The position numbers were made by a program, and so were the translations under genes. From IMG/VR virus record IMGVR_UViG_2657245112_000024: DNA of 8,483 nt, one strand, 5' to 3'. Origin of the DNA: a virus (lineage: Duplodnaviria; Heunggongvirae; Uroviricota; Caudoviricetes). Shown here one piece after another: positions 1,779 to 8,308 of the stretch. Position 1 is the first letter of the stretch. Each line of letters starts with the position of its first letter. The notes under the pieces are model-generated. The model was not told the origin of the DNA. It saw nothing but the letters and a program-made list of their open reading frames with translations, and ran no database searches.

Positions 1779-2220
1779 TGTAACGCTGCGAGCGTTACAA
1801 GGTGAAAACAAATGGCTTCAAACTGGATAAAGCTCGAGGTTATTACGCCGGATAAGCCGGAAATATTCAGGCTTGCTGAGATTCTGAATATTGATCCAGA
1901 TGCCGCATTAGGGAAGGTTATTCGCTTCTGGGCATGGGCGGATCAACAAATGATAGACGGTAATGCAGATTGTAACGCTCGCGGCGTTACAAAAAGTGCA
2001 ATAGATCGCATCACTTTTATGGCTGGTTTTGCTGATGCGTTAATTCAGGTTGGATGGCTGGTCGAAAATGACGGTGGGCTTTCTCTACCTAACTTTGAAC
2101 GTCATAACGGGAAAAGCTCTAAAAAACGGGCGGTTACAAACGAGCGAGTTACAAAAATACGCGAACTGAAACGAAAAGGTAACGCTGGCAGCGTTACACA
2201 AATGGATCAAAAAGCGTTAC
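1779..2220. repeat. Iteron-like inverted/direct repeats (putative phage origin, initiator-binding sites)
   Basis: Repeated GTAACGC...GCGTTAC palindromes: tgtaacgctgcgagcgttaca (1779-1799, perfect, 21 bp), tgtaacgc-tcgcg-gcgttaca (1971-1991), gtaacgctg-g-cagcgttac (2179-2197). Additional half-sites GTTACAAA at 2133-2140 and 2149-2156 and agcgttac at 2213-2220. One copy lies just upstream of the initiator gene and the rest inside its 5' half, as for lambda ori within O. Confidence 0.55.
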
Positions 2221-2600
2221 CAGAGGAAGAGAAAGAGGAAGATATAAATACTGATCTCCCCCTAAATCCCCCTCGCCAAAAACGAGCGTCTAAAAAATTT
2301 GTGCCGGAGGCTATTGAGCTGCCCGATTGGTTGCCGGAAACACTCTGGCATGAGTGGGTCCGGTTCAGGCAGGCATTGCGAAAACCGATTCGAACGGAGC
2401 AGGGCGCTAACGGGGCGATACGGGAGCTGGAAAAATTCCGCCAGCAGGGTTTTACACCTGAGCAGGTGATTCGACACAGTATCGCCAATGAATACCAGGG
2501 CCTGTTCGCGCCGAAAGGTGTTCGGCCTGAGACGTTGCTCCGACAGGTTAACACCGTCTCGTTACCGGATAGTGCGATCCCGCCAGGCTTCAGGGGGTAA
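1812..2600 (+). CDS. Phage replication initiation protein (YdaU/DUF1376-like, with a C-terminal DnaT-like segment)
   Basis: 262 aa. Position immediately upstream of a DnaC-like loader. Contains the iteron cluster. C-terminal region (LPDWLPETLWHEWVRFRQALRKPIRTEQG) resembles the DnaT/primosomal C-terminal domain seen in phage initiators. AAGGTGA RBS. Confidence 0.65.
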   Translation: MASNWIKLEVITPDKPEIFRLAEILNIDPDAALGKVIRFWAWADQQMIDGNADCNARGVTKSAIDRITFMAGFADALIQVGWLVENDGGLSLPNFERHNGKSSKKRAVTNERVTKIRELKRKGNAGSVTQMDQKALPEEEKEEDINTDLPLNPPRQKRASKKFVPEAIELPDWLPETLWHEWVRFRQALRKPIRTEQGANGAIRELEKFRQQGFTPEQVIRHSIANEYQGLFAPKGVRPETLLRQVNTVSLPDSAIPPGFRG

Positions 2601-4593: not shown

Positions 4594-4618
4594 CTACTAG
4601 GGGGGATAACAATAAAAT

Positions 4619-4638
4619 AAAGCCTCCTAGGAGGCTTT
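4619..4638. terminator. Palindromic hairpin between convergent genes (putative bidirectional terminator)
   Basis: Perfect 20-bp palindrome aaagcctcctaggaggcttt between the plus-strand gene ending at 4593 and the minus-strand methyltransferase whose TAG stop (4627-4629) lies inside it. T-rich flanks on both strands. Confidence 0.5.
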
Positions 4639-5667
4639 GATTATATTAAGCAAATGTTTTCCAATCGTTTCAGACATCTTCGGAGGGACCGCATTTCCTA
4701 TTTGACGAGCCCGAGATTGCAAAGAACCAATAAATTTATAATCCAAAGGAAATGTTTGTAGACACGCTGCTTCACGAACAGATATTGCTCGATTTTGTGT
4801 TGGATGTCCAAAACGTCCATTTGAATAGCTAATACAACGAGTTGTTAGTCCGCTGGCTGGTTTGTCCCAACTCAAACGTCCATATACGTCTGTATGCCCT
4901 TTATGGTTACGATGGCATTCTAAAATCAATTCATCTGGCCAAAATTCTCGACTTCCACCTTCAGGAGTGCATTTTATTCTACGTAAATTAAGCTCTGATA
5001 AGCGTGCAGCTTCATGATCAGGAATACTATTATGCTTTTCTCCTGCTTCTATCTTCGGTAAATTAGCGATCCAGTCCTTTACTGTTGAATAGGGAGTATT
5101 TCCAACCCCATGTGTAGGAGAAGGCAATGCGACATAAAAATCCTTGGATGCAATGAGCACTAATCTTTCTCGCGTCTGTGGTACACCGTACCACGCAGCT
5201 GGCATTACTTTATAATCTACACTATATCCCTTTGATGAAAGCATTTCTAAAAACATCATGAATGTTCCTTCATTTTTGTTAAACTTTTGCATTCCTGGCA
5301 CGTTTTCAACAAAAATAAAATCAGGCATATAATGCTCTACAAAACGACTGAATTCCTTTAATAGATCTAATCGTGGATCATCATTTTTTTTATTTGAGTT
5401 TTGCTTAGAGTACGGTTGACAAGGCGCACATCCTGAAAAAAGAATGTAATCATTACGATGTTTTTTTACTAACTTGTTTATGGCATTGTTGTCGATTAAC
5501 CTAATGTCCGAGTTAATAAAAGCAGCTTGCGGGAAATTTGCACGAAATGAACTGGCTGCATCAACGTCGAAATCGAGGCCAAAAACAATATCCATTCCAG
5601 CTTGATGGAAACCTTGGCTGGTTCCACCACAACCGGAAAAGAAGTCAAACACTTTGATTTTTTTCAT
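4627..5667 (-). CDS. DNA (cytosine-5)-methyltransferase
   Basis: Complete C5-MTase motif set: I FDFFSGCGG (FxGxGG), IV GCAPCQPYS (PCQ), VI FVENVPG (ENV), VIII QTRERL, IX REAACLQTFPLDY, X GNAVPP. ATG at 5667 preferred (GAGGGA RBS 4 nt upstream). The track extends to a GTG at 5691 that overlaps the upstream gene's TAG stop by 1 nt. Confidence 0.9.
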   Translation of the reverse strand: MKKIKVFDFFSGCGGTSQGFHQAGMDIVFGLDFDVDAASSFRANFPQAAFINSDIRLIDNNAINKLVKKHRNDYILFSGCAPCQPYSKQNSNKKNDDPRLDLLKEFSRFVEHYMPDFIFVENVPGMQKFNKNEGTFMMFLEMLSSKGYSVDYKVMPAAWYGVPQTRERLVLIASKDFYVALPSPTHGVGNTPYSTVKDWIANLPKIEAGEKHNSIPDHEAARLSELNLRRIKCTPEGGSREFWPDELILECHRNHKGHTDVYGRLSWDKPASGLTTRCISYSNGRFGHPTQNRAISVREAACLQTFPLDYKFIGSLQSRARQIGNAVPPKMSETIGKHLLNIIKAS

Positions 5668-5690
5668 TTTTCCCTCTGCATCCAGAATCA

Positions 5691-7520
5691 CTACCTAATG
5701 ATACCACGGTCAAGAGCCTGAGTAATTATTTTTCTTATTTTTATAAATTCAGGCAATTCATTTTTAAGTCTTGCGGTCATCATTTTTTGGAGGCAAAAAA
5801 TTTCCTCTGCATTTACTTCTTCTTTATCATACAGGTGTTGCGCTAATAATCTTATTTGATTCTTATACAGCTCTGGATCATTAGAACTCCAGGTCTGTGA
5901 ATCAATTATTTCTTTTTCACTTGGCGTAATTGCCTTTTCAATGAGTAATTGTTCGGGAGTATCAAATGGTAAATACTGCACTTTATTGAATGCATACTCA
6001 AGCACTTGCCTTTTGAGTCTATTAGATTCTTGTTCATTTTTTTTGCCATTACTACCACTGGCATTGATAATTAACTCGCAACCATAATATTTGCACATTG
6101 TATTAACTAAATCAGCATCAGCAATTTCACTAATTCTTACTGGTTTTATTTTTTTGTTTTTATCACCATCAAGTAAAAACAAAATATCATTGCGTTCTAC
6201 CACAGCGTAACTGGGAAGATGCTTGCTTAAAATTGTCTCCGAACCACCTGGTATATAACTTACACTAAATGATAAACTTAATCTTTCATAATTTTTAATC
6301 GCTTTATCTATAATTGCTTTAGCTAATTTATCTTCTACAATTATTGTTTTCTTGTTAATATCATGCCCTAGCTCTATAAAAGCTTCATCCGGTGCTATAT
6401 TTTGAACTATTTTAGCTGTTTCACTCTCTTCATCAAAAACAAATAATTTAATAGCATCTTTGGGAAGAGTGTTCACAATAACAGGAGAATGGGTTGATAT
6501 TACCACTTGATGTTTTTTCTGCTCAACAATAGAGTACAGAACATCCATCATCCTTTTCTGTGCACCAGGGTGAAGTGAAACTTCTGGTTCGTCAAGAAGA
6601 ATTAATGAATTAGGTTTGGCCGAATAAATATTGAGTATTAGTGAAACTATTGCAAATTCACCACTTCCAGCAAAAGCTTCTGTATAGTTCAACTTATCAG
6701 TTGAAAGTAAAGCGGTTCCTCCTCTGGTTCCAAATAACCGATGCTCAAGAAATTTAATGACTTTATATTTTTTTCCTAATATAAATGAGACGTGCTCAAC
6801 TAGTTCTGGCGCCAAGGTTATATTTTTAACAATGGTTTCCGTCCCCCAAAGTCTTAAATTACTTAGCTTTTCATCAAAAGCTTTCTTTATATATTTAGAT
6901 TTGCTTCTGATATAGTCTTGCTTTGTAATTAATACACCACTCTTCTTCTTTCTTAATTTAAAATCAGAGTGATACATACATCTATCAAATGCACTTATTT
7001 CCGATCTGAAATCTAGGAAAATCAATCCCTTCTTGATTTTTTTCCATCTGGTTGCATTACTATTAGCACCCAGATCATCCGAAATACTCTCCATGTTATC
7101 ACCAACAGATGGTCGACTTGTTTCCCAATAATCGATTGTTTTCTTGGTAGCATTGATACGCGCTTGGAGTATTTCAACTAAACGGCCATCAGCATTTTTA
7201 TATCCATATATATATCTAGGCTTAAGAGAACTGCCATCAGCAAGTTTTAGGTCAGGAAACTCATCTGTTTCAGTTGTGAACCAATAACGAGTTATATTTT
7301 TACCATGTGGGCAACCAAATAGCGCTTTGATAACAGAACTTTTATTAGTTCCATTTTTTCCTACTAAAGCCGTTATAGGGAACTGAAAATCGATCCTTGC
7401 ATTCTGCTCTATATTTTTAAAGTATGGAAAACGGATATGTTGTATGAATGGTTCAAATTCACCGTTTTTTAACGCGCACTGGAGTGTTCGAATTTTGCTC
7501 TTGTATGCGGAAGTGCTCAT
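5691..7520 (-). CDS. OLD-family-like ABC ATPase with C-terminal Toprim-like nuclease signature
   Basis: 609 aa. N-terminal P-loop LVGKNGTNKSSV (atypical, N where the conserved G precedes K), Walker B/D-loop LILLDEPEVSLHP, H-loop VVISTHSP. C-terminal candidate Toprim motifs: conserved glutamate in TIIVEDKLAKAII and DxD in ILFLLDGDKNK. Very AT-rich. Immediately upstream of the C5-MTase in the same orientation. Confidence 0.75.
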   Translation of the reverse strand: MSTSAYKSKIRTLQCALKNGEFEPFIQHIRFPYFKNIEQNARIDFQFPITALVGKNGTNKSSVIKALFGCPHGKNITRYWFTTETDEFPDLKLADGSSLKPRYIYGYKNADGRLVEILQARINATKKTIDYWETSRPSVGDNMESISDDLGANSNATRWKKIKKGLIFLDFRSEISAFDRCMYHSDFKLRKKKSGVLITKQDYIRSKSKYIKKAFDEKLSNLRLWGTETIVKNITLAPELVEHVSFILGKKYKVIKFLEHRLFGTRGGTALLSTDKLNYTEAFAGSGEFAIVSLILNIYSAKPNSLILLDEPEVSLHPGAQKRMMDVLYSIVEQKKHQVVISTHSPVIVNTLPKDAIKLFVFDEESETAKIVQNIAPDEAFIELGHDINKKTIIVEDKLAKAIIDKAIKNYERLSLSFSVSYIPGGSETILSKHLPSYAVVERNDILFLLDGDKNKKIKPVRISEIADADLVNTMCKYYGCELIINASGSNGKKNEQESNRLKRQVLEYAFNKVQYLPFDTPEQLLIEKAITPSEKEIIDSQTWSSNDPELYKNQIRLLAQHLYDKEEVNAEEIFCLQKMMTARLKNELPEFIKIRKIITQALDRGIIR

Positions 7521-7668
7521 TGTTTACTAAAGTCCATAATAGGCTATTAACAGGTTGAGGATGACATGATAGCGATTTTTAATGCAGATAAAAGAGGTTT
7601 GTTGGTTAGCACACAACAGAAAAAGTGACCTTACCGCTTGAACGAAAGGTAAGGGTAAGTAGGCTGTG

Positions 7669-7821
7669 ATGCAGCAAAAGGCGATGTTAATCGCCCTGAT
7701 CGTCATCTGTTTAACCGTCGTTGTGACGGCACTGGTAACGAGGAAAGACATCTGCGAGGTACGAATCCGAACCGGCCAGACGGAGGTCGCTGTCTTCACA
7801 GCTTACGAACCTGAGGAGTAA
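7669..7821 (+). CDS. hok: Hok/Gef-family type I toxin (HokD/RelF-like small membrane peptide)
   Basis: 50 aa: MQQKAMLIALIVICLTVVVTALVTRKDICEVRIRTGQTEVAVFTAYEPEE. Single transmembrane helix plus the conserved C-terminal periplasmic region of Hok proteins. Near-identical to my recollection of E. coli HokD/RelF. Not in the ORF track because it is short. Confidence 0.85.
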   Translation: MQQKAMLIALIVICLTVVVTALVTRKDICEVRIRTGQTEVAVFTAYEPEE

Positions 7822-7912: not shown

Positions 7913-8095
7913 TGCGCGCTGAATACGCAGGGTGAAAAATAACCATATATTTGATTATATACACAACAAAAAATAAAAGTCATTGTACCTGCACATTAAA
8001 TAATCAAATATACGGCGTGAAATAAATATTTTTCAGATTAATATTTTTGTCTCTATGTGGATATAACCGTTTGTACTTATAAACTCGGAGGCATC

Positions 8096-8308
8096 GTGGA
8101 AAAAATAAAGAAACTATTTAGTTGCAAATACGCAGTCATACGTCGTGATGACCTGTCAGTTATAGTCGAAATGGATTACTTCCCTGAAATCCCAAAATCA
8201 ATGATGTATCGTAATGGTCGAAAGGCAATTTTTTTACCGATGAGGGTAAGTGACATTATGGGAAATGATAAACTGCTGGATGAATTGCGAGTCAGAGCAT
8301 CCTGTTAG
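8096..8308 (+). CDS. Small hypothetical prophage protein (70 aa from the GTG; the track extends it to 83 aa from an ATG at 8057)
   Basis: GTG at 8096 has a GGAGG RBS 5 nt upstream; the ATG at 8057 has none. Sits immediately downstream of hok, the position occupied by rem in the Qin prophage, but the sequence is not confidently recognised. Confidence 0.4.
   Translation: MEKIKKLFSCKYAVIRRDDLSVIVEMDYFPEIPKSMMYRNGRKAIFLPMRVSDIMGNDKLLDELRVRASC

Follow-up and report, generated by a model that had tools for sequence, protein, structure and literature searches.

We examined an 8,483-nucleotide stretch of DNA (the window) from the IMG/VR virus record IMGVR_UViG_2657245112_000024 (Caudoviricetes) and found that it carries, on its minus strand, a two-gene cassette in which a gene for an ATP-binding cassette (ABC) ATPase with a C-terminal Toprim domain is followed by a gene for a C5-cytosine DNA methyltransferase (MTase). 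In phages and in bacteria of many phyla the two genes move together as one unit, and their context fits none of the four published classes of OLD nucleases. The domain call is already known, as the public annotation of the first protein is “ATP-dependent nuclease”; what appears to be new is that the protein has a C5-MTase as its obligate partner, and that the pair belongs to a family of cassettes for which one MTase lineage serves as the hub. We give an even chance to the interpretation that the cassette is a two-component restriction-modification (R-M)-type defence, in which self DNA is marked by 5-methylcytosine (m5C) and the ATPase-Toprim protein attacks DNA that is unmarked.

Linkage of the ATPase-Toprim and methyltransferase genes

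An earlier note, made from the letters of the window alone, had described a minus-strand arrangement of a nuclease gene followed by a complete C5-MTase gene, and the open reading frames (ORFs), the 23-nt spacing and the full set of MTase motifs agree with that description. It had also proposed that a survey of gene neighbourhoods would show whether the pairing is conserved. We surveyed 80 loci, from one genome per species, in Proteobacteria, Actinobacteria, Bacteroidota, Bacillota, Acidobacteria and other phyla. An orthologous MTase gene, whose product is 33-72% identical to the window MTase, directly adjoined the ATPase gene on the same strand at 60 of these 80 loci (downstream in 43), and at 11 more it was located in the same operon without adjoining, separated by one gene in ten cases and by two genes in the locus L079. 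At four genome loci (L010, L020, L033 and L054) the sole C5-MTase match, 0.3-5.8 kb away, was divergent, fragmentary or on the opposite strand, and five of the 80 had no MTase match; three of the five end at a contig boundary beside the ATPase gene, and the other two, L039 and L062, have flanking room. Among viral loci from IMG/VR, the MTase adjoined the ATPase in 60 of 64, and three of the four exceptions were truncated. The pairing is therefore conserved, with 71 of the 80 genome loci linked, and across both surveys a C5-MTase partner was present at ~130 of 144 loci, in both gene orders and, in most, with gaps of a few nt to ~60 nt. As both orders exist within the family, the nuclease-first arrangement, which the earlier note called unusual for classical Type II systems, is not diagnostic; the classical system EcoRI also has its restriction gene ahead of its methylase gene. 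In one low-ranked representative of the family (E 2e-81, among the best 150 listed), which lies in a chromosome outside a prophage, 3 nt separate the ATPase gene from the MTase gene that follows it.

The same association was evident within a single species. Among 5426 complete E. coli genomes, the MTase and the ATPase were each present in an identical set of 32, always at full length, and the carriers include ATCC 8739 and Shiga toxin-producing isolates of serogroups O103 and O111. ATCC 8739 is widely used as a laboratory and quality-control strain, and its copy (NZ_CP043852.1, 1004746-1007639) is an intact cassette in a Rac-like prophage, with a nuclease gene 99.1% identical to that of the window and an MTase corresponding to WP_000721512.1. 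In E. coli EC11 (locus L150; NZ_CP027255.1, 4653520-4655350), the nuclease gene is broken into ORFs of 1392 nt and 480 nt by an insertion of 1 nt, and the MTase again corresponds to WP_000721512.1. No other copy in the 32 genomes is damaged; this frameshift in the nuclease gene, beside an intact MTase, is a single case and weak evidence. A second E. coli variant (L082-L085, 5001-7835) encodes a 596-aa ATPase, 39% identical to that of the window, and, starting 3 nt after it, an MTase of its own of 346 aa. In lambdoid prophages this variant occupies the interval between the Q antiterminator and lysis genes, on the strand opposite to the late operon; it occurs in 8 complete genomes, with more divergent copies in 10 others.

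Pairwise identities among the ATPases and among the MTases are correlated (Mantel r=0.63, p=0.001; 58 pairs plus the window), which shows that the two genes are inherited as a unit, although the correlation is by itself no proof of physical contact between their products. Only one of 57 matches in a plasmid collection covered at least 80% of the query and, because that collection contains almost no members of the family, the cassette is not a plasmid system.

We also considered the association from the side of the MTase, using the 80 closest viral-contig relatives of the window enzyme. All 17 relatives with at least 58% identity adjoin an ATPase-Toprim gene; of the remaining 63, only L199 (42% identity) does so, and the other 62 (38-53%) do not. 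These 62 are not orphan MTases, and most are partnered with a GmrSD_N/ParB-like gene plus a HEPN (MAE_28990) gene, or with a GHKL “paraMORC” ATPase gene, sometimes with Vsr. Examples of these other effector sets, within L170-L231, are L175:3995-6856, immediately preceded by a phage Q antiterminator gene, L171:3968-6798, L178:4001-7042 and L181:3986-7127. The paraMORC and ParB+HEPN neighbourhoods have been presented as R-M-type systems by Aravind and colleagues (PMC2292703; PMC3710099), and the latter paper treats paraMORC-HEPN as an R-M accessory.

Single operons that combine these modules occur in Bacteroidota and in some further lineages, with the order MTase, paraMORC, ABC-Toprim, Vsr or the order MTase, ABC-Toprim, paraMORC, Vsr, and two of the four paraMORC proteins that were scanned have a C-terminal Ymh/HEPN domain. 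The ABC-Toprim protein is the sole candidate DNase in the Bacteroidota operons composed of MTase, paraMORC-HEPN, ABC-Toprim and Vsr genes. Within the genome survey a GHKL gene was present at ten loci and Vsr at 16, and the latter implies that genome-wide m5C is real in those hosts. Together, these data show that the MTase lineage is a hub with exchangeable effectors. Because the ABC-Toprim gene almost never occurs without an MTase, while the MTase does occur without ABC-Toprim, it is the nuclease that needs the methylase and not the reverse, which is the pattern expected if the effector is dangerous in the absence of the mark.

Two further operon types depart from these arrangements. In two Bacteroidota metagenome-assembled genomes (L066:3645-7752 and L070:3657-7764), the ATPase-Toprim gene follows a complete HpaII-type R-M pair, consisting of an M.HpaII-like MTase, different from the MTase of the rest of the nuclease family, and R.HpaII (PF09561, 1e-132 to 1e-147), whose gene is overlapped by the ATPase-Toprim gene by 4 nt or abuts it. 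The operon at L079 (133-7740) encodes the MTase, a 1007-aa HEF_HK/GHKL histidine-kinase-like protein, a 524-aa Response_reg_2 protein and the ATPase-Toprim protein, and is a signalling-type variant of the system.

The two proteins and their place among known systems

Pfam searches of the 609-aa protein identified only its ATPase part (AAA_15, AAA_21 and SMC_N, aa 26-350). No Pfam family was matched by aa 370-609 at E<=0.1, nor was there a Pfam Toprim or DUF4435 match; no NCBIfam model reached its cut-off, a sequence search of the PDB returned nothing for aa 370-609, and PHROGs offered only phrog_3940, of “unknown function”. Thus, of the profile families that the earlier note had named for searching, AAA_15, AAA_21 and, for the second protein, DNA_methylase were recovered, and Toprim/OLD and DUF4435 were not matched over the nuclease domain. 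Conservation and structure were more informative. An alignment of 45 full-length homologues, 37-83% identical to the window protein, shows no variation in the ABC motifs (Walker A G54-K60-S61-S62, signature A284-G-S-G-E288, Walker B D310-E311 and H344) or in the C-terminal residues E396-D397, D451-G-D453, P518, E523, K553 and Q578. The AlphaFold2 model of the protein has a pLDDT of 87, with a confidently modelled C-terminal domain, and the structures closest to this domain are the Toprim regions of OLD, GajA and AriB; the top Foldseek ranks were taken by C-terminal regions of GajA and of Xanthomonas and Burkholderia OLD proteins, with probabilities of 0.99-1.00 and modest scores. The structural matches and the invariant E...DxD residues together support the prediction that the 609-aa protein is an OLD-like ABC-ATPase/Toprim nuclease, the architecture originally read from its motifs.

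Among defence-system models in PADLOC-DB v2, the best match to the nuclease was HEC-04 (PDLC04149; 6.6e-35, ~120 bits), but only over profile positions 160-383 of 494, and the result held for three members of the family. ATPase-Toprim_I-B, a retron model of the Eco8 type, matched aa 41-464 (8e-27), matches to AriA models were confined to the ATPase part, and restriction endonuclease models were absent from the top matches. The Old and GajA models matched aa ~301-370 only and, because this amounts to ~60 residues around Walker B, the protein is not a member of Old, GajA or AriAB by sequence. No named system in PADLOC-DB v2 was therefore matched, as the earlier note had anticipated. We regard the nuclease family as a discrete one; its cluster representatives (50% identity clusters) number 374 at E<=1e-30, 918 at 1e-10 and 9084 at 1e-3.

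HEC-04 is a solitary ABC-ATPase/TOPRIM defence gene, a homologue of IbfA, that is active against T4 and T5. It resembles the window protein in fusing an ABC ATPase to a Toprim domain, in the E and DxD metal ligands and in carriage by mobile elements. However, the model match is partial, the window protein is ~100 aa longer, and HEC-04 is solitary and acts alone whereas the window family is almost always linked to an MTase, so that, judged by model coverage and context, the window nuclease is not HEC-04/IbfA. An ATPase-Toprim protein from an E. coli plasmid, a candidate IbfA-type relative, shows an identity of only 33% over 163 aa; it scores better on the retron I-B model than on HEC-04 and may not be IbfA.

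The second gene of the cassette encodes a complete enzyme. Its product matched Pfam PF00145 (DNA_methylase) over 322 of 324 profile positions (5e-61), TIGR00675 above its cut-off and the PADLOC model MTase_II (1e-96), and it has motifs I (FxGxG), IV (PCQ), VI (ENV), VIII (QxRxR), IX and X (GNAVP) in the canonical order. The catalytic motifs are all intact and are invariant across aligned relatives. The best-matching solved relatives are the catalytic domains of DNMT1 (1e-38), ahead of M.HaeIII and M.HhaI, and they also include uncharacterised structural-genomics enzymes; by these comparisons we assign the MTase to a DNMT1-like subfamily of C5 DNA methyltransferases within the Dcm/DNMT superfamily. 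The part of the MTase that usually sets the target, between motifs VIII and IX, shows good conservation and almost no gaps among the partners of the ATPase family, suggesting that these MTases have one or a few related specificities instead of the usual diversification. Literature searching brought up no usable m5C methylome of ATCC 8739.

The published OLD nucleases comprise solitary proteins (class 1; P2 Old and Ts OLD), GajA with UvrD-like GajB (class 2), retron-associated proteins (class 3; the Eco8 effector) and PARIS AriA/AriB (class 4) (PMC10568477; PMC6755086). The window protein shares with the family its architecture and the fold of both domains, but the curated Old/Toprim models fail over its nuclease domain. 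Its context also differs from each class in turn. Class 1 proteins stand alone, whereas the window family has a C5-MTase partner. In Gabija (class 2) a UvrD/PcrA-like GajB is encoded downstream, whereas here the downstream gene encodes a C5-MTase, with no recurrent helicase cluster among the neighbours. Unlike the retron systems of class 3, neither the window nor the recurrent neighbour clusters contain a reverse transcriptase-like ORF (msr/msd non-coding RNA was not searched for), and in contrast to PARIS (class 4), which consists of separate AriA and AriB (DUF4435) proteins or an AriAB fusion, the window has a single fused gene without a DUF4435 match. The earlier note had described OLD classes as solitary or partnered with UvrD-like helicases, which overlooked the retron and PARIS classes.

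Several other systems bear partial resemblance to the cassette. The Dcm-centred operons (paraMORC with or without HEPN(Ymh), plus Vsr; ParB/DUF262 plus HEPN MAE_28990), described by Iyer et al. 2008 (PMC2292703) and Anantharaman et al. 2013 (PMC3710099), draw on the same subfamily of MTases (38-53% identical to the window MTase) and occupy the same cargo sites in prophages. An ABC-Toprim gene lies inside such operons in Bacteroidota, whereas the window cassette consists of MTase and ABC-Toprim only. In the portions consulted, the two papers describe GHKL, HEPN and ParB partners, and an ABC-ATPase/Toprim partner was not found there. PrrC-EcoprrI and PARIS likewise combine an ABC ATPase sensor with a nuclease and are tied to restriction systems or anti-restriction proteins; however, PrrC has a HEPN nuclease in a Type I hsd locus with its own endonuclease, whereas the partner here is a lone C5-MTase, and PARIS has no MTase partner. 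The cassette resembles Type II and Type III R-M systems in that MTase and nuclease are encoded in one operon and in that the nuclease rarely occurs without the MTase while the MTase occurs without the nuclease. Type II effectors, however, are ATP-independent enzymes of the PD-(D/E)xK, HNH, GIY-YIG or PLD type, in contrast to an ABC-ATPase/Toprim protein with conserved ATPase motifs, and the Type III pattern of Mod plus Res, a superfamily 2 helicase with a PD-(D/E)xK nuclease, is one that the window effector fails to match.

Three candidate precedents were rejected: the P. aeruginosa genes PA1939 and PA2735 lack linkage and have been shown to act independently, the OLD gene of Xanthomonas belongs to class 1 and is carried by a transposon, and “Liu-DS1” is a Gabija variant. 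The ABC-Toprim/C5-MTase pair was nowhere described in the literature searched, a search that left REBASE and Krishnan et al. 2020 (NAR 48:10045) uncovered.

Prophage setting of the cassette

The window is 100% identical to sequence from E. coli O103 RM8385 and is part of a Rac-like lambdoid prophage. Its plus strand carries a cro-like gene, ydaT, a gene for a 262-aa protein, a DnaC/IstB-like ATPase gene, and DUF1627 and DUF977 genes. The cassette is located between DUF977 and hokD, on the strand opposite to the cro, YdaT and replication genes, and its GC content is 0.31-0.40 compared with ~0.50 in the phage genes on either side. This setting, together with the position of the second E. coli variant at the classical cargo site downstream of Q, matches the earlier picture of an AT-rich, opposite-strand moron with the look of prophage cargo. 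The coordinates of the cassette and its neighbours are collected in Table 1.

Table 1. Features of the cassette and adjacent prophage genes (window coordinates)
Feature	Position	Strand	Details
Nuclease gene	5691..7520	minus	609 aa, ATG start; RefSeq WP_000107695.1, “ATP-dependent nuclease”; from ORF list and annotation
ABC ATPase head	6411..7454	minus	aa 23-370; Walker A 7335-7361, signature AGSGE, Walker B D310-E311, H-loop H344
C-terminal Toprim and helical region	5694..6407	minus	aa 372-609; E396-D397 at 6330-6335, D451-G-D453 at 6162-6170
Spacer, nuclease stop to MTase ATG	5668..5690	minus	23 nt; GAGGG ribosome-binding site 5672-5676; from sequence reading
C5-MTase gene	4627..5667	minus	346 aa; RefSeq WP_000721512.1, “DNA cytosine methyltransferase”
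Palindromic GC-rich hairpin with T-runs on both strands	4618..4639		from terminator scan
cI-like repressor	557-976	minus	
hokD-type Hok/Gef toxin gene	7666-7821	plus	PF01848, 1.5e-22; divergent, ~145 nt from nuclease start codon

The nuclease gene ends with a TAG codon at 5693-5691 and the MTase ATG is at 5667-5665, leaving a gap of exactly 23 nt; this ATG at 5667 is the start picked by RefSeq, and a GTG at 5691 would make a protein of 354 aa. At the end of the MTase gene, overlapping its stop codon, the hairpin forms a perfect 8-9 bp GC-rich palindrome, AAAGCCTCC TAGG GGAGGCTTT. Judged by position only, it probably terminates transcription in both directions, that of the cassette and that of the convergent DUF977 gene; in this region neither terminator-like nor promoter-like sites exceed their shuffled expectation. 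A promoter scan upstream of 7520 revealed no convincing or consensus promoter. The hokD-nuclease intergenic region is presumably shared by mok/sok elements and the promoter of the cassette. Two ORFs in the window had no Pfam match at E<=0.001: the 262-aa ORF at 1812-2600 (plus strand), just upstream of the DnaC/IstB-like ATPase gene and annotated by RefSeq as a hypothetical protein, and an 83-aa ORF at 8057-8308 (plus strand), downstream of hokD.

Restriction-modification as the proposed function, and its alternatives

If the cassette is an R-M-type defence, the C5-MTase would continuously methylate host and prophage DNA at its target sites, thereby protecting it, and the ABC-ATPase/Toprim protein would be an ATP-dependent effector against incoming DNA, with unmethylated sites as its trigger. 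ATP-driven engagement of the ABC heads would license a two-metal Toprim site composed of E396, D451 and D453. The simplest reading is that the MTase also supplies site recognition, as the modification subunits of Type I and Type III systems do, and that the effector plugs into it through protein-protein contact, since three unrelated effectors share the MTase lineage, the recognition region is conserved, and the AlphaFold2 model of the ATPase has neither a long insert nor a variable DNA-reading domain. An R-M-type function is supported by the linkage and co-inheritance of the two genes, by the asymmetry of their dependence, by the presence of Vsr, by the invariance of the MTase motifs, by the frameshifted nuclease beside an intact MTase in EC11, and by the Bacteroidota operons. 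More tentatively, we propose that the cassette could define both a fifth genomic OLD-type class and a distinct kind of R-M system, in which a DNMT1-like MTase would serve as self-marker and DNA-reading hub and the ABC-Toprim protein would destroy DNA with unmethylated sites.

Several observations weigh against an R-M-type function. The closest tested relative, HEC-04/IbfA, is solitary, abortive-type and toxic when induced (10.1101/2024.01.29.577857; PMC12111858). Two Toprim nucleases, P2 Old and AriB, are reported to cleave tRNA and not DNA (PMC12445682; PMC11464382), and OLD-type ABC-Toprim proteins have been given the role of “backup suicidal effectors” within modification-based systems, including BREX (PMC12839542). 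The HpaII pair ahead of the ATPase-Toprim gene in L066 and L070 brings its own endonuclease, and the conserved target-recognition region of the MTase is unlike the specificity diversification of Type II systems. Neither a controller protein nor a clear promoter was found that would allow safe establishment with the nuclease gene first. Finally, no orthologous C5-MTase match was detected within the 4-6 kb flanks of the genome loci L039 and L062 or of the viral locus L133, nor was a C5-MTase motif found in the flanks of the first two; these loci are possibly solitary members of the family or partnered in trans.

Some of these same observations fit an abortive guard resembling PrrC-EcoprrI or PARIS, in which the MTase, or the normal methylation status, holds the ATPase-Toprim protein inactive until disturbance by a phage, for example through an anti-restriction or DNA-mimic protein, a S-adenosylmethionine hydrolase or a flood of unmethylated replicating DNA, leads to cleavage of tRNA or host nucleic acid and growth stop. 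We regard this as the main rival, though a less probable one than an R-M-type system, and it has several precedents. P2 Old and AriB are reported to be tRNases that phage cues set off (PMC12445682; PMC11464382; 10.64898/2026.07.10.737580), and OLD-ABC/Toprim proteins are reported as backup effectors inside BREX and related modification systems (PMC12839542). HEC-04, besides its toxicity on induction, is embedded in the methylase-containing Hma system, and HEPN RNase domains, proposed to act in the manner of PrrC (PMC3710099), are present in sibling cassettes with an MTase of this subfamily. The position of the ATPase-Toprim gene behind a complete HpaII pair in L066 and L070 also fits an add-on role. 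However, the common two-gene form contains no primary restriction enzyme to back up, and an MTase by itself would offer no defence for a guard to watch over. The invariance of the catalytic motifs of the MTase and the presence of Vsr argue, in addition, that methylation itself matters and not merely the MTase protein. The obligate linkage favours neither a guard nor an R-M-type system, because both predict it equally.

A far less probable explanation is that the window carries two independent cargo functions, a solitary abortive nuclease of the OLD or HEC-04 type and a phage “orphan” MTase that shields the phage genome against restriction enzymes of the host. C5-MTases of this orphan kind are common in phages, the window MTase has relatives that are not accompanied by the ATPase, HEC-04/IbfA works alone, and three loci have no orthologous MTase match in the flanks examined. 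Yet linkage at ~130 of 144 loci, in distant phyla and in both orders, the Mantel correlation (r=0.63) and the exact co-occurrence in E. coli are not accounted for by chance adjacency, and linkage extends to non-prophage chromosomal contexts, so that independence of the two genes is close to refuted. A methylation-dependent (Type IV-like) nuclease directed against m5C-modified invader DNA, the alternative raised in the earlier note, is the least credible, since nothing specific favours it beyond the presence in sibling cassettes of GmrSD_N, known from modification-dependent enzymes, whereas the adjacent partner MTase would mark the host chromosome and Vsr in 16 loci indicates a methylated host, making such a nuclease suicidal.

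If the cassette is indeed an R-M-type defence, the ABC ATPase plus Toprim architecture would join the short list of restriction-effector folds, and OLD-family proteins, for which the nature of the trigger is the main question, would gain a context with a defined one, the absence of a known DNA mark. One MTase lineage, composed of bacterial relatives of eukaryotic DNMT1, would be a shared hub for several unrelated effector modules. Such cassettes, which are currently invisible to the PADLOC-DB v2 models searched, would be barriers to transformation and phage therapy.

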